Assembly (NCBI GenBank): GCA_964016885.1 | Contig: OZ024748.1 | Location: forward strand, 434,001-498,000 | Reading direction: 5' to 3' | Length of the DNA stretch: 64,000 nucleotides | Source of the DNA: Eledone cirrhosa | Lineage: Eukaryota | Shown here: positions 14,288 through 54,536 of the stretch, piece by piece | Layout: every line of letters starts with the position of its first letter | Numbering within the stretch: the first letter of the stretch is position 1 | Translations under genes and position numbers: made by a program | Notes under the pieces: model-generated | The model's input: the letters and a program-made list of their open reading frames with translations, nothing else | Database searches by the model: none | What the model was told of the DNA's origin: nothing

Positions 14288-14466
14288 AGCTTTCACCGTA
14301 TTTTTGACTAAAGAAATTTTAGCCTGATAATGGGGTTTAGAACCCTCAGATAAATGGAAAAGGATGAGTATTGACGTACATGGGAGTCGAACCCACATCT
14401 TTGGTTATCCAAACCACTGTGCTACCATTACACCATTGGTGTAATGGTAGCACAGTGGTCTGGATA
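14283..14466 (-). mobile_element. tRNA-headed short element with 5' fold-back
   Basis: Minus strand: A-box TGGTGTAATGGTAGCAC and T-arm GTGGGTTCGACTCCCAT. Palindrome 14406-14466; 3' end at (TA)n. Confidence 0.6.
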
Positions 14467-34347: not shown

Positions 34348-34622
34348 TCATGTCTTGATGAACGGGAGTCCTCTGTAGTATGAAAGATCCAGACTAAGAG
34401 GTCTGCAAACTTTCTTCAGCAGCCATTCCTCCATGCAGTCCAGAGCTAAAGGTTGTTGGTTCACGTAGAATTTGTTGGCAAACAAATGTTTCTTTTCTGT
34501 CAAATACAAAATGTCACCAATTCCAAATACGCAGATGTTCCGTACCCATCGACCGAAACATGGGTCACCTTTCTCTCGCCATCCAGCGTATGTAGCTAAC
34601 CACGGTTTCGTGTTAGGGTCTC
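34348..34622 (-). CDS. GCNT1: GCNT-family terminal coding exon (not in ORF track)
   Basis: Acceptor CTATCCAG|GA at 34623|34622; phase 1 matches the upstream donor (G+GA=Gly). Hand translation: GDPNTKPWLATYAGWREKGDPCFGRWVRNICVFGIGDILYLTEKKHLFANKFYVNQQPLALDCMEEWLLKKVCRPLSLDLSYYRGLPFIKT*. Contains the GCNT C-terminal CxGxxVRxxCxFGxGD and LFANKF motifs. Spliced product 456 aa. Confidence 0.92.
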
Positions 34623-35139
34623 CTGGATAGATGGGGGAAGAAGTAGAAGAAGAAAAATGATTTTATGGTTTTTTAGAAGAACATCAAATAAAAAATAAAA
34701 CAAAAGACAAAACATATAGTAAAACAAAATGAAAAAGATAAACATAAGAATTTTAAACATGCGACGGATTCGTCTCCTTACCAGGAAGAAGGGATGGGGT
34801 TATGATTTTAGTGGCTTAACACCACATGAAACAAGCCATGTCACCGACATTTATATAGTAAGAAAAAGTTATGAAAGACTATTACGTAATGGAGTTATAG
34901 TCACTGCAGATTATTGTATAGAAACGACGTAAAACAACAACTGTAGCCTAATGACGTCCGTCATCCTCATACCATTAATTGATGTAGTTCGGTGGTTATT
35001 TTGCTCCGGAGGGTGGATTGGGTCTGGTGAATGAGGTCGAATGTAAAAGTATGGATTAAGTTTGCTTCAACTTGCGAAGGCTTTGGTTTGACCTGAGTAT
35101 ATCCTCGTTCAAACTGGTTTGATCTGGGTATATTTACGT

Positions 35140-38644: not shown

Positions 38645-38789
38645 CATATTTTAGTCCAGAATTAGCCGTCGAAACGGCTTGAGCTCAGCCGTCGGGGTCC
38701 TACTCGTTCCTATTACCCACTCTACTACCCCAAGTATTGAGTACTTTGGTGCGTTATGGTCCACCTGGTTCCTTACCACATTTCCTCCG

Positions 38790-38822
<33 letters not shown>

Positions 38823-38952
38823 GAAGGCAGCGAATTTTTCAGTGGCTTAGAATCTAGCCCCGCTCGATTTTTTCGCTTTTTTCCATCCACTGAATTATTG
38901 TTATATAAGCTTCCAGTGTCCCTGCATTGCCTGGTGGCTTAGCTGAGAATAG

Positions 38953-39031
38953 ACTCCCTGATGACGTAAGGCTTCTCTACAGGTATTACATAACTGTATT
39001 TATCCCCTTACAGAAACTAATTAGTTGGAGT
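38953..39031 (+). ncRNA. Type I hammerhead ribozyme, family K
   Basis: ACTCC-CTGATGA-CGTAAGG..CCTTACA-GAAA-CTAATTAG-TT-GGAGT, inside a ~260-bp unit flanked by (TA)n. Confidence 0.75.
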
Positions 39032-39078
39032 GAAATTTTAGTAAGTAAGTCAATTTTCATAACTTTCTTATTTACGTC

Positions 39079-39125
<47 letters not shown>

Positions 39126-39328
39126 TATAGATATGTGTGTGTATTCATTTAAAAGGTAAACAGAAATAACAACACAATCGATACAGTATATGGAAGGAAT
39201 ATATTAGGTTAACGCTTGGTATAGCAGGAAGAGGGTCTTAACGTTTGACGCTAGTCCTTCATCAGAAGATAGAATGAGAAATAAGAAAGATTGAAGAGAC
39301 GGGTGGGTGCGGAATCGGAAATACACAC

Positions 39329-39462
<134 letters not shown>

Positions 39463-39732
39463 CGAAGGAAATGTGGTAAGGAACCAGGTGGACCATAACG
39501 CACCAAAGTACTCAATACTTGGGGTAGTAGAGTGGGTAATAGGAACCAGTAAGACCCCGACGGCTGAGCTCAAGCCGTTTCGACGGCTAATTCCGTCGAA
39601 ACGGCTTGAGCTCAGCCGTCGGGGTCTTACTGGTTCCTATATATATATATATATATCTATATATATATATATATATTTCGTTTGTGAATTTGTTTAGCAA
39701 GATTCTTTCTCTGAAATCGTGTGTTGAAACCG

Positions 39733-40297
39733 ATATTGTTATACTTTGGGAGGGTCATGTTGCCAATAAGAAAATAGAATCTACACACAGAAAAGACGCA
39801 ATGTTTAGACAAATCGCAGAGGCAATAAACATAAAAGAATTACAACCAAAATTAAATAGAAAATATGAGTGGAACAGCAACATCACAACTTACAATTAAG
39901 GACAAAATAAAAACACACACACACATAGAACAAACAACCAACCGGTAACATGTAAATAAACAAATAAATAAACAAATATAAACACACACAGACACCCGGA
40001 TGTGGCGCATGCGCAGACTGGGCACACAACACACACACAGAAACAAAATGGCGTAGGACAGAACAAAGGAGAGGCACAAAAACAAAGAAAAGAATCCCCA
40101 GTCCCTGATGAGGTCACAGAATGTGTGACGAAAGAACTTTGACAATATATAAACAACTATCTGGTTGTGGAACCAACCAACCAACCAGAAATTTATAAAT
40201 TTATAAATTCCTAAATTTATAAATTTCTTATAATAAATTGAAGTGAAAGAAACTGGTGCGTGTGTTTCTTATTGGCAACATGACCCTCCCAAAGTAT

Positions 40298-40305
<8 letters not shown>
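39733..40305 (+). mobile_element. PLE 3' end (GIY-YIG C-terminus, 3' UTR, family M HHR) with short 5' inversion
   Basis: Coding tail RQIAEAINIKELQPKLNRKYEWNS (stop 39899). HHR at 40101-40143. 39733-39770 is the reverse complement of ~40266-40305. Ends in (TA)n. Confidence 0.78.
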
Positions 40306-41699: not shown

Positions 41700-42089
41700 T
41701 ATATAATATATAAGATCAAAAGATGGTTAAAAGAGTTCCATGTATTTTATTATGCGCATTTCAAAAACAAATATCATCATGCAATAAGATTTGTGTTTTC
41801 ATCAGATAAAATAGGAAGACATGATATGAAGGTTAAAAAAACACTTGTGAATAGTGCAGTTTTAAATCAACATATATGTTGATTTAAAACTTCCTATTTT
41901 ATCTGATGAAAACACAAATATTATTGCATGATGATATTTGTTTTTGAAATGCGCATAATAAAATACATGGAACTCTTTTAACCATCTTTTGATCTTATAT
42001 ATTATGTATACTCCAGTCCTACAAACTGTAGAGTGCTTCTTATCCGATATCTGCATTGCTTTATTGTACTACAATAAAACTCACCTCCT

Positions 42090-43656: not shown

Positions 43657-43676
43657 TTGGTGCTCTGAAATAGCGA

Positions 43677-44090
43677 TATATATATATATATGAATGTATA
43701 TATAGTGTATTTTGCAATACACTGTATGCTTAATTAAAAGCATTTCGAAGACCTTACCCTATTGTTTTAGAGTAGTGACAGTCTCACTTACTTTAAATTT
43801 TCAGCAAACAGGGGAGATAAAGCTGACAGAGCTCTGTTTCGTACTGATTGGTACTTATCAAAGCCAAGTACTTCAGCTGTTTGCTGATAAGTACCTGGCT
43901 TTGATAAGTACCAATCAGTACGAAACAGAGCTGTGTCAGCTTTATCTCCCCTGTTTGCTGAAACTTTAAAGTAAGTGAGACTGTCACTACTCTAAAACAA
44001 TAGGGTAAGGTCTTCGAAATGCTTTTAATTAAGCATACAGTGTATTTCAAAATACACTATATATACATTCATATATATATATATATATAT
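43677..44090. repeat. ~410-bp near-perfect palindrome in (TA)n
   Basis: Mirror ORFs 43712..43969(+) and 43793..44050(-) place the centre at ~43881. Confidence 0.92.
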
Positions 44091-47050: not shown

Positions 47051-47142
47051 ATTCGATATCAAACCCATAAATACATTAATATAATTATCATTTTTATAGT
47101 AATGATAACGAATAAATAATATATGTATATATATATATATAT

Positions 47143-47610
47143 ATTGTTATACTTTGGGAGGGTCATGTTGCCAATAAGAAACACGCACCAGTTGCTTTCA
47201 CTTCAATTTATTATAATAAATTTATAATAAATTTATAAATTTATAAATTTCTGGTTGGTTGGTTGGTTCCACAACCAGATAGTTGTTTATATATTGTCAT
47301 AGTTCTTTCGTCACACACTCTGTGACCTCTTCAGTGACTGGGGATTCCGTTCTTTGTTTCTGTGCCTCTCCTTTGTTCTGTCCTACGCCATTTTGTTTCT
47401 GCATTACCTTAAGGAGTTTGGTATCAAAAAGATTACTTAACAAATGTTCTTGCATAAAATGGTGGAAGATTTTCAGGCAAATATAAACACTTTAAACAGA
47501 AACAAAATGGCGTAGGACAGAACAAAGGAGAGGCACAGAAACAAAGAACGGAATCCCCAGTCACTGAAGAGGTCACAGAGTGTGTGACGAAAGAACTATG
47601 ACAATATATA
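47143..47610. mobile_element. Family M PLE-end fold-back with captured host loop
   Basis: Arms 47288-47401 and 47497-47610. HHRs at 47296-47338(-) and 47560-47602(+). Loop 47401-47496 equals 48231-48326. Confidence 0.85.
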
Positions 47611-47828
47611 GGAGGCTGGACTGGTGTAATTCCTTAAACGTTTATTATACTATGATCATTTCAATGACCGGGTTCAGTATGAATCCGGTGACATCATCAG
47701 GTATTCGAAATTTAACAAAGGAAAATAATCCATGTGGTTGATGATGTCACCGGATTCATACTGAACCCGGTAATTGAAATGTTCATAGTATAATAAACCT
47801 TTAAGGAATTACACCAGTCCAGCCTCCT
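47611..47828. mobile_element. Family O HHR fold-back
   Basis: Arms ~47611-47699 and ~47740-47828. HHR at 47647-47704(-): ATAC-CTGATGA-TGTCACCGG..CCGGTCATT-GAAA-TGATCA-TA-GTAT. Confidence 0.75.
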
Positions 47829-47854
47829 GTTATTTTATAATTATATATATAGAA

Positions 47855-48040
47855 TATAGAAATGGCTTCTACAGGACTAGAATTGTTTCATTCGAAGGAA
47901 ATCATCAAGAAAGGCTTTCCTGATGATTTCCTTCGAATGAAACAATTCTAGTCCTGTAGAAGCCATTTCTATATTAAATATTTATACTCTGCTATGTATT
48001 GAGTACCTTACTTACTGTGGTTACACTCGACTGAACCCGG
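47855..48040. mobile_element. Family J HHR fold-back
   Basis: HHR at 47913-47964(+): GGCTTTC-CTGATGA-TTTC(CTTC)GAAT-GAAA-CA..TG-TA-GAAGCC. Apex ~47913. Confidence 0.78.
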
Positions 48041-48043
48041 GCG

Positions 48044-48111
<68 letters not shown>

Positions 48112-48340
48112 GTTTGGGTATTTAGTGTTAAAGAATAAAAACTAATGATTAAAAAAAATGTTTTAAAAAAAGGGGCCCCCGAGGGTGTGTGAACCTAAGC
48201 TATACCTTATTTAGCTTATAGGTAAGTTCAGCATTACCTTAAGGAGTTTGGTATCAAAAAGATTACTTAACAAATGTTCTTGCATAAAATGGTGGAAGAT
48301 TTTCAGGCAAATATAAACACTTTAAAATACTTTGCCTTAC

Positions 48341-49436
48341 CTTTGTATCCACCAGGTGTGTTCAGATGTTTGTTAATTTGAAGGTGGTTTAAGGTAGCCC
48401 AGTAATATTCATCCGGACTTGAAATGTCTTGCATCCACTCTAGAAGATCGCGGGCTCGTTTATCAAAGAGAATGTACTGAACGAAGCTTTTGCTGAACAC
48501 ACCGTATGCACTGCCCTTCACGATACTGATCTTGTGTGGGGGTGGCGCTTTCCTTTTGTTCGTTCGTTTGATGTAGCTTGTATCGTCTTTACGTGAAAAA
48601 TAAATAGCATGACGGTATTGGTATCGTTCAGGTAACATCCGTTTACCTGTAATACCTTCGATGTCATTGGCTCCGTTGTAGACCTTGAGAATTTCTACGA
48701 GTTCTGCGTTGGTTTTCAACGGATATACCTGACTGGGTAAATTGATGAAATACTTCCAGCTGCCGTTTCGTGATATGAGATCCATCATACAGTTGATGTC
48801 AGCTTGCAGACGAGAGAACGACGAATAGACAACCTCTTCCAATTTGGAAGCAATGAAGACGTTATCGAAACAGGTTACCAATTGTATGACTGCATAGTGG
48901 AGCTGGAACGGTGATTTGGCGTCAATGTGTAAACAATACCAATTATGTGGCCTGTAAATGGCTCGAAGAAGTTTCTCGACTTGGACAAAATCTTTATAAA
49001 ATAAAATACTGTAAGCGAGTGGGAATTTGTGTTCTTCCGGAGATATGTCAAGTATGTAATTATGTTTTTTTTTAAAGCTATCACAGTCTGAAAACTGTCG
49101 AAGGATTTCTTCTTCCGGAGTTGGTTTCATATCCTTCATCACATTCAGTGCTCGTACTAACTCGGTTTCGTTCATATTAAAAATGGCTTCACAATCAACC
49201 GATTTGACGAGGCGGTTTTCCGGATCACAATATGACGGTCGCTTATCTGACGCGGTTCGAATGATTCCTCCGGCGTGTCCCGACCGCCCAGAGCCTTTGT
49301 CATCTCCCACAGAGTGCTTCCTCATCAGCTGGCTTGAGAAAGAGTTCAATTTGAAGACTGCATATGTGAAGGTAACAGTACCAGTAAGAAACAGAAATAT
49401 TAGTAGCTTCTTCCATCGCCGACCAATGCTGTTCAT
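48341..49436 (-). CDS. GCNT1: Core-2/I-branching beta-1,6-N-acetylglucosaminyltransferase (GCNT family, GT14), main coding exon
   Basis: Part of ORF 48303..49619. ATG at 49436 (MNSIGRRWKKLLIFLFLTGTVTFTYAVF: type II membrane anchor). GT14 motifs FPLAYSIL, LLRAIYRPHNWYCLHIDAKS, NVFIASKLEEVVY, RLQADINCM, WKYFINL, PLKTN, KGSAY, SPDEYYWATL. Acceptor (T)n-CAG at 49541-49540; donor AAG|GTAAGG at 48341|48340. The symbol is family-level only; the paralog is not resolved. Confidence 0.93.
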
Positions 49437-49790
49437 AGTCTTGTTCCGTTTCTTCCGTTTCGCTCCTCCGCTCTGTTTCTTGCGAGAGTTGGGCCGCCGT
49501 GAGGAGGAGGAGCAGGAGGAGGAAGAGGACCGGTTTAATCTGAAAAAAAAAAAAAAAAATGGTAAACTCCCTGCATCAGTTGTCAGCTGCCGAGACACTG
49601 CATCCTTTAAGACCTCCATGCTTCCCGAGATTAGCTAACACTATACCTAATGTTCTCCCTCCATACACACGCACACATGTAAATCATGACTCATACACTA
49701 TTCACTTCGCTGACATTTGTATATTATTCTATGTACTATACATGCACCTTTGACGAGATGTAGTGCACCTGAGCACTGTACACAATAATT

Positions 49791-52538: not shown

Positions 52539-52689
52539 TACACATAAGGTCTGCATACTATCGTCTGCATATACATATACAAATATACTATATTAGCTCT
52601 CTTGTATACACACATTCATAAAGTTACAATATTATCACAGACACACACACACACAGAGTGGTAGACATATAGAAATATAGGGGATGAAA

Positions 52690-52780
52690 TATCGACCCCA
52701 GTGCATTACTGGTACTTTATATTATCGACCCATAGAAGGATGAAAGGCAAAGTTGACTTCGGCCTGATTTGAACCCAGAG
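52690..52780 (-). mobile_element. tRNA-derived SINE body fused to the 54-bp array
   Basis: Its B-box GGGTTCAAATC is continuous with the first repeat unit. Confidence 0.75.
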
Positions 52781-54536
52781 AGCAGAGAGAGCCGTGTCTA
52801 TATACATAGAGCGTTCTATCTGTTGAACCCAGAGAGCAGAGAGAGCCGTGTCTATATACATAGAGCGTTCTATCTGTCGAACCCAGAGAGGAGATAGAGC
52901 AGTGTCTGTATACATAGAGCGTTCTATCTGTTGAACCCAGAGAGCAGAGAGAGCCGTGTCTATATACATAGAGCGTTCTATCTGTCGAACCCAGAGAGGA
53001 GATAGAGCAGTGTCTGTATACATAGAGCGTTCTATCTGTCGAACCCAGAGAGCAGAGAGAGCCGTGTCTATATACATAGAGCGTTCTATCTGTCGAACCC
53101 AGAGAGGAGAGGGAGCCGTGTCTATATACATAGAGCGTTCTATCTGTCGAACCCAGAGAGGAGAGGGAGCCGTGTCTATATACATAGAGCGTTCTATCTG
53201 TCGAACCCAGAGAGCAGAGAGAGCCGTGTCTAAATACATAGAGCGTTCTATCTGTCGAACCCAGAGAGGAGAGGGAGCCGTGTCTATATACATAGAGCGT
53301 TCTATCTGTCGAACCCAGAGAGCAGAGAGCGCCGTGTCTATATACATAGAGCGTTCTATCTGTCGAACCCAGAGAGGAAATAGAGCAGTGTCTATATACA
53401 TAGAGCGTTCTATCTGTCGAACCCAGAGAGCAGAGAGCGCCGTGTCTTTATACATAGAGCGTTCTATCTGTCGAACCCAGAGAGGAGATAGAGCAGTGTC
53501 TATATACATAGAGCGTTCTATCTGTCGAACCCAGAGAAGAGATAGAGCAGTGTGTATATACATAGAGCGTTCTATCTGTCGAACCCAGAGAGGAGATAGA
53601 GCCGTGTGTATATACATAGAGCGTTCTATCTGTCGAACCCAGAGAGCAGAGAGAGTCGTGTCTTTATACATAGAGCGTTCTATCTGTCGAACCCAGAGAG
53701 GAGATAGAGCAGTGTCTATATACATAGAGCGTTCTATCTGTCGAACCCAGAGAGGAGATAGAGCCGTGTGTATATACATAGAGCGTTCTATCTGTCGAAC
53801 CCAGAGAGCAGAGAGAGTCGTGTCTTTATACATAGAGCGTTCTATCTGTCGAACCCAGAGAGCAGAGAGAGTCGTGTCTATATACATAGAGCGTTCTATC
53901 TGTCGAGCCCAGGGAGGAGATAGAGCAGTGTGTATATACATAGAGCGTTCTATCTGTTGAACCCAGAGAGGAGAGAGAGCCGTGTCTATATACATAGAGC
54001 GTTCTATCCGTTGAACCCAGAGAGGAGATAGAGCAGTGTGTATATACATAGAGCGTTCTATCTGTTGAACCCAGAGAGGAGAGAGAGCCGTGTCTATATA
54101 CATAGAGCGTTCTATCTGTTGAACCCAGAGAGGAGATAGAGCCATGTGTGTATATACATAGAGCATTCTGTCTGTCGAACCAAAGAGCAGATAGAGCAGT
54201 GTGTGTATACATAGAGCGTTCTATCTGTCGAGCCCAGGGAGGAGATAGAGCAGTCTCTATATACATAGAGCGTTCTATCCGTTGAACCCAGAGAGGAGAT
54301 AGAGCAGTGTGTATATACATAGAGCGTTCTATCTGTTGAACCCAGAGAGGAGAGAGAGCCGTGTCTATATACATAGAGCGTTCTATCTGTTGAACCCAGA
54401 GAGGAGATAGAGCCATGTGTGTATATACATAGAGCATTCTGTCTGTCGAACCAAAGAGCAGATAGAGCAGTGTGTGTATACATAGAGCGTTCTATCTGTT
54501 CAACCCAGAGAGGAGATAGAACCATGTGTGTATATA
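52771..54536. repeat. 54-bp tandem array, ~33 copies
   Basis: Unit GAACCCAGAGAGGAGATAGAGCAGTGTCTATATACATAGAGCGTTCTATCTGTC (period 52771 to 52825); ~271-bp higher-order duplication near the right end. Confidence 0.95.

Follow-up and report, generated by a model that had tools for sequence, protein, structure and literature searches.

A Penelope-like element fold-back in Eledone cirrhosa with a copy of neighbouring intron DNA as its loop, and the recurrence of such captures in its family

In the window analysed here, a stretch of 64,000 nt from Eledone cirrhosa, the 3' end of a Penelope-like element (PLE) forms a DNA fold-back whose loop is a 96-nt copy of host intron DNA located 621 nt beyond the element edge. 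The capture is real on the assembly and it is recurrent, nine other fold-backs of the same family carrying a copy of their own flank at the junction. The 96-base loop was probably generated by a DNA-templated template switch, of the end-joining type, during the closing of the PLE insertion. No function is indicated for the captured loop.

Loop and source are identical at 96/96 positions, in the same orientation and without further extension either way. The two arms are complementary at 114/114 positions and the loop is placed exactly between them, with one base common to loop and element at each junction; the left junction additionally shows a 4/5 match (TTCTG versus TTCAG). The minus-strand exon next to the source encodes a Core-2/I-branching (GCNT-type) domain (PF02485, E 1.4e-42). 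Its donor GT starts at 48340, position 48326 being +15 of the intron, and a downstream GCNT exon with C-terminal motifs is located near 34350-34650, so that loop and source are both inside one GCNT-type intron of ~13.7 kb. In all these points (exact copy, intronic origin at +15 to +110, position between ~114-bp inverted arms of a PLE 3' end, 1-nt microhomologies) the first-pass annotation was correct. Its description of a ribozyme hairpin has to be replaced, as the 96-mer is the loop of a DNA fold-back and each arm has its own hammerhead-like core. The features are collected in Table 1.

Table 1. Features around the captured loop and its source (positions of the window)
Feature	Positions	Strand	Basis
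(TA)n target microsatellite at the left, regular element end	47122..47143	.	sequence; family likewise has a '+254' end then (TA)n
PLE 3' end (pLTR region), 5'-truncated at the family fold-back hot spot; inner 114 bp form the left arm (47288-47401)	47141..47401	-	92-98% to 29 genomic copies
Minimal type I hammerhead-like motif, left arm (GTCA, CTGAAGA, stem II, GAAA, short helix III, TGAC)	47296..47338	-	sequence reading
Captured 96-nt loop, direct copy; first and last base common to element	47401..47496	+	identity to 48231-48326
Right arm, inverted PLE copy, starting at the same hot spot; irregular end at +109 instead of the usual +310	47497..47610	+	
Minimal hammerhead-like motif, right arm	47560..47602	+	sequence reading
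Older fold-back of a second hammerhead-bearing repeat family, 3 mismatches in 90	47610..47828	.	
Fold-back of a third hammerhead-bearing repeat family, 3 mismatches in 66, one-sided extension	47842..48041	.	
Loop source, intron +110 to +15, containing part of a decayed dispersed repeat	48231..48326	+	
GCNT-type (Core-2/I-branching) coding exon	48341..49538	-	
Second copy of the same PLE family: GIY-YIG C-terminus and inverted 3' piece	39640..40305	+	

Elsewhere in the window, more long fold-backs of other families are found between (TA)n tracts (43676-44086, 38659-39640 and 41703-42005), together with a tandem array of ~29 copies of a 54-bp unit (52663-54529) and a partial tRNA-like match of 36.8 bits (14380-14435).

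The element copy at 47141 consists of the non-coding 3' end only and, over 47141-47401, exceeds the paired arm in length. Longer copies of the family continue upstream of this region into GIY-YIG and reverse transcriptase (RT) sequences, and one of them (L258) has an open frame of 859 aa with YSRYVDD and the endonuclease. In a longer copy the GIY-YIG domain passes its cut-off (PF01541, E 6e-5) and RVT_1 stays under its own (E 5.6e-4). A C-X4-C-X2-C motif (C-IDKK-C-IT-C) is located ahead of VYIGET, before the nuclease. As given in the available text of Craig et al. (10.1101/2021.04.23.441226), a CX2-5CxxC motif upstream of GIY-YIG is the mark of Neptune and Nematis; by this motif and the (TA)n targets, the element would be an EN+ PLE of the Neptune/Nematis type. 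The family is young and large, with 150 scored matches at 98-100% among 36,148 candidates. Each arm contains a predicted hammerhead-like core, read from the sequence as CTGAAGA, stem II, GAAA and a 4-bp stem I, in the minimal hammerhead layout described in PMC4209133; the Rfam search gave no hammerhead match here, its matches being to generic hairpin (miRNA) models and none of them reaching the cut-off. In L258 the 3' end (279-767) is 88.7% like the reference, and by eye many A-to-G changes surround the hammerhead.

The mapping of PLE fold-back loops to the nearby flank, proposed in the first-pass annotation, was carried out for this one family. A search for inverted pairs of an exact 14-nt motif (the motif opposed to its reverse complement) gave 351 matches at gaps of 0-24 nt, 98 at 25-55 nt, 44 at 56-125 nt and 93 at 126-330 nt (controls, 0), places with three arms being counted twice. 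Besides the window locus, 156 loci were analysed: the sets with 56-330-nt gaps, whole minus four duplicates, and 25 loci from the shorter sets, some of them hand-picked for a non-element look, with the 0-24 set as such unsampled. All 40 loci with gaps of 33-55 nt were viewed as a listing. Flanks were taken on each side to ~5 kb for 100 loci and to 1.5-2 kb for the remainder. At least 15 non-family bases were present at the junction in 29 of the 156 fold-backs, and in nine of these 29 they map to the locus's own flank, at 94-100% identity. Six of the nine are direct copies, of 18 (L133), 23 (L130), 25 (L131), 27 (L132), 126 (L129) and 136 nt (L201); three are inverted, of 80 (L128), 88 (L126) and 146+21 nt (L200, in two pieces). 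In L132, and likewise in L133, the two arms are identical to each other. L129 shows a 12-nt tandem re-priming, L126 lies in a tandem array and matches its source at 94% (5/88 substitutions), L201 has 1/136 substitution and L200 differs from its source by small gaps only. The nine loci are spread over seven contigs, and their sources lie 126-1561 nt from the element edge. With the window locus included, the sources are found on both sides of the element and in both orientations, all ten within 1.6 kb in windows reaching ~4.7 kb. The nine loops had no equally good match in the other 155 loci; the exceptions are L132, with one such match (a repeat), and L133, in its poly-T part.

The remaining 20 non-family inserts are variants, low-complexity or arm-derived, except those of L127 and L208 (20 nt). 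The complex 39-nt insert at L127:4992-5030 has no source within ~13 kb on either side and is a candidate for a distant or an RNA template. Two loci, L202 and L244, were excluded from the count; their best loop match is local, but it is composed of (TA)n and a widespread repeat and is nearly equalled at other places. Flank capture thus amounts to 10 in ~586, or ~2% of the junctions, and to 10/177 for gaps of 33-330 nt. A pattern directed at junctions in which both arms are short had 14 matches, none of them a further capture. Over all families in the 464 kb around the window, only one of 65 fold-backs, that of the window locus, has a loop that is wholly a copy of a non-element neighbour, and there is one further candidate; the 65 are what is left of 136 candidates after removal of low-complexity arms and spacers >1 kb. 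In another family, L041:6590-7550 and three copies of it in L043-L046 (a segmental duplication) have a spacer of 124 nt; over 103 nt it matches a place ~550 nt away at 94%, possibly an older capture.

Two readings would deprive the loop of its meaning as a capture. One is that the 96-mer is a dispersed repeat or a part of the element, inserted independently, and the first-pass annotation had itself named a dispersed repeat of the element consensus as the alternative. Some ~75 of the 96 nt do belong to a decayed dispersed repeat, which that annotation had not remarked on, a family with hundreds of candidates (40 of 614 scored) and 42 further matches. These other copies, however, are only 81-90% identical and, among the matches scored, leave the first 21 query bases of the 96-mer uncovered; the 96-mer is absent from the 156 other family junctions and from 29 family copies, and in the 3.0-Gb genome it occurs exactly at two places only, both local, the loop and the intron site. 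At the intron site the repeat runs on to 48333, while at the loop it ends at the loop's edge; this identifies the intron site as the original from which the loop was copied. Independent insertion is therefore already largely refuted and extremely improbable. The decayed repeat also forms tandem arrays with 82-109-nt units at L004, L007 and L010. The other reading, very unlikely, is an artefact of assembly or of long reads. Palindromes are hard to assemble, the identity of loop and source is 100%, and L200 differs from its source in small gaps alone. When 47270-47826 was compared with contigs of runs X1, X2 and X4 and with RAD reads (X13), no junction-bridging piece was among the matches listed from the four runs; such contigs drop rare branches beside very deep repeats, and the loop junctions rest on the assembly. 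The source site itself is confirmed by contigs of X1 and X2 (1.36-1.40 kb) passing unbroken through the source 96-mer; both runs may come from the assembly's own sample. Other fold-backs, joined at this position of the element but lacking a loop, are numerous in the reads and contigs of the four runs. An empty allele was not encountered. Against an artefact, the flanks on either side of the fold-back differ, unlike in read fold-backs, and nine more loci on seven contigs are built alike at this element junction, with loop substitutions (L126, L201) or biological signatures (the re-priming in L129, the two pieces in L200) in some of them.

The architecture of the family bears on how these junctions are closed. 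In 134 of the 156 loci the arms have their outer ends at reference positions +254 and +310, one at each, which leaves a 56-nt tail on the latter; in the others there are two long ends (3), two short ends (1) or irregular ends (18), and (TA)n adjoins both ends in 83 of the first 101 loci. At the centre of the 134 regular loci, the longer arm is the tailed one in 51 cases and the tail-less one in 31, with equal arms in 52. Neither arm contains the other in 31/134, and hence a single cDNA copied back on itself is insufficient, unless a deletion came later. On the other hand, pure twin priming is argued against by arms that invariably seem to belong to a single subfamily (mixed-subfamily arms, which would demonstrate two RNA templates, were not apparent in any of 97 loci), by the symmetry of some centres far from the hot spot, by palindromes that extend into the captured bases at L132 and L131, and by a short 5' fold-back in L258 without the element 3' end. 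Both sets of evidence would be accommodated by the usual synthesis of two cDNA ends, joined through a short snap-back from which the pairing arises. More than 10 extra bases are present at 67/156 junctions; they are mostly element copies, often iterated copies of arm sequence near the junction, flank copies being the ~2% given above. Iterated short copies of arm sequence are seen in L082 (three repeats of a 14-nt unit), L091, L093, L095 and L204, and three-arm junctions, with 70-120 nt of arm again at the centre, in L137, L138, L143, L147, L154, L164 and L230 (several times in the last). Fold-backs with identical junctions and regular spacing, four at G000:C5:12.57-13.14 Mb and three at C10:26.06-26.20 Mb, are likely large tandem duplications.

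At the window locus only the left, tail-less end is regular. The right arm ends at +109 against the neighbouring fold-back (47610..47828), whose left end is without the ~8 nt and without the (TA)n present at its right end. A regular priming site at +109 was considered and dropped, 1/202 ends being located there. The irregular right arm may have been copied from the left arm, which is somewhat favoured by the 0/114 and 0/96 differences, or else it was separately primed and then cut back. The first-pass annotation had proposed that the polymerase returned onto its own product, and this part stands: it is direct at L132 and L131, where the palindrome reaches into captured bases, and fits the irregular right end here. 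A single continuous jump out and back, by contrast, fails for the fold-backs of the family generally.

The preferred explanation, a DNA-templated switch during closing, would proceed as follows. The element nuclease would cut the (TA)n and the RT would make cDNA, usually from both cut strands. A free cDNA 3' end without a pairing partner would prime on a few bases of the nearby chromosome, be extended over 20-170 nt of flank DNA and be released; the released end would then prime a second time, now on the element (on its own product or on the other cDNA), and the gap would be closed. Sources on both sides, in both orientations and within 1.6 kb suit nearby DNA as the template. The exact matches at capture junctions are of 0-5 nt, those of one base being at chance level. 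A rule by which the first cDNA is fixed and the template is a resected 3' overhang fits only 3/9 of the other loci, so that both ends would have to act, unless strand invasion gives access to the template. A side-by-orientation rule, with direct copies coming from the side of the longer arm, is not claimed, the assignment of the copying strand being ambiguous. We infer both the identity of the copying polymerase and the timing of the capture, at insertion and not later. As for the enzyme, end joining of the host polymerase theta type is marginally preferred over the element's own RT, and the genome encodes a POLQ-type helical domain (POLQ/HELQ-type, the two not told apart). As for the timing, divergence of the loops is compatible with the age of the insertions: one substitution was seen against 2.2 expected from arm-arm divergence (P=0.35, with L126 left out), in what is a weak test, and the oldest capture locus, L126, has the most diverged loop.

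A rather unlikely version of these events gives the copying to the element, the Penelope RT, at work on both cut strands simultaneously, hopping to chromosomal DNA up to 1.6 kb away and copying 20-170 bases before closure. If this were true, one could read from the loops, across the genome, how far the PLE integration complex reaches and what the state of its strands is, and PLE fold-backs would continually supply host sequence enclosed in long RNA hairpins. The main rival to capture at insertion, unlikely as well, is later repair, in which a loop-less fold-back was inserted first, the centre of its palindrome broke by cruciform or hairpin cleavage, and end joining patched it from nearby DNA. 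Long palindromes are break-prone, and such repair predicts the same centre-specific, local inserts flanked by microhomology; loop divergence is not above expectation, 7/8 non-tandem loops having no substitution. The same divergence is nevertheless compatible with insertion age, the absence of any difference in arms and loop at the window locus leaves little time for a second event, captures are present in the youngest copies (L132, L133), and equivalent inserts arise in de novo insertion of LINE-1 and R2, as far as these sources (PMC11702581; PMC11371274) describe them. Quite unlikely, finally, is that the element RT left its RNA, jumped to nascent GCNT pre-mRNA, copied +110 to +15 and went on to its own cDNA. 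The first-pass annotation had allowed for local host DNA or pre-mRNA as the template; local host capture recurs in the family (9/156), and the nascent pre-mRNA is not supported. The polarity would fit, as the left arm could be extended only on the minus strand, which has the sense of the pre-mRNA; in the transcript the source precedes the insertion, 4/5 bases could prime, and RT jumps to other RNAs are known in LINE-1 and R2 in the same partial accounts. A resected right flank, however, has identical polarity and makes RNA unnecessary, the sources of all ten captures lie within 1.6 kb of the edge, on both sides and in both orientations, and the copied piece is internal, stopping at +15 and not at the first base of the intron. 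The junctions speak weakly in the same direction: on return to its own product the end has 0 paired bases with left-strand copying and 1 at both junctions with right-strand copying, the 1-nt matches pairing with the own product only if the template was the strand antisense to the pre-mRNA.

Published EN+ PLEs (PMC3846280; Craig et al. 10.1101/2021.04.23.441226) have in common with the present family an RT with C-terminal GIY-YIG, a pLTR with a hammerhead (here a hammerhead-like motif predicted from the sequence), head-to-head inverted 5'-truncated copies, a tail at one end and AT-rich targets. Their tails are of 30-40 nt, and here the tail is of 56 nt and strictly paired with a tail-less end (134/156). 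Frangione et al. (PMC11167929), in the portion available, place the tail between two RT start sites and report that both DNA strands are cut and extended in vitro; the paired outer ends of the present family agree with such start sites on either side of the tail and were counted for the preferred explanation. Self-priming was proposed for PLE inverted junctions by Arkhipova et al. (PMC3846280), and Pen1 spacers of 0.9-1.5 kb, located before the 3' pLTR, show capture of host DNA (PMC3846280; 10.1101/2021.04.23.441226). Unlike the case described here, the available text of these descriptions contains no copy of insertion-site flank inside an inverted junction. No published case of PLE flank capture was found in a search with subscription papers and bioRxiv supplements outside its scope, and the retrozyme preprint 10.64898/2026.07.22.740005, as far as its accessible part goes, does not treat it. 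The origin of PLE head-to-head repeats is called unresolved in the PLE literature available. In this family, hundreds of young junctions are available whose outcomes can be counted (the two fixed outer ends, which arm is the longer at the centre, element versus flank inserts), and this makes the question of their formation testable by side, strand, distance and POLQ dependence.

Outside PLEs the closest likenesses are with other retroelements and with break repair. In R2 PRINT (PMC11371274, as far as available) 'snap-back' 5' junctions arise when the cDNA 3' end primes on cDNA or, less often, on nearby target DNA, in an engineered, single-primed system at one rDNA site; here, in contrast, the copies are heritable and genomic, there are two regular element ends, and capture is followed by return to element DNA. 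Three LINE-1 insertions with DNA templated near the site are described in the accessible part of PMC11702581. LINE-1 twin priming, in a different retroelement class, joins arms from different parts of the RNA, whereas here the arms repeat the same part. The inserts made by polymerase theta, as described in the available text of PMC12426944, are copied from break flanks with minimal priming, iteration and patchwork, and are generally <25 bp. Flank copying (10 loci including the window locus), matches of 0-5 nt and iteration in L082, L129 and L200 are common to both; 6/10 captures here are of 80-167 nt, up to 146+21 nt, with sources up to 1.6 kb away, and as this is above the polymerase theta norm the process may be said to work like polymerase theta without membership of that class. 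The type of event would thus be one already known for LINE-1, R2 and break repair, of which capture in PLE fold-backs appears to be a variant.
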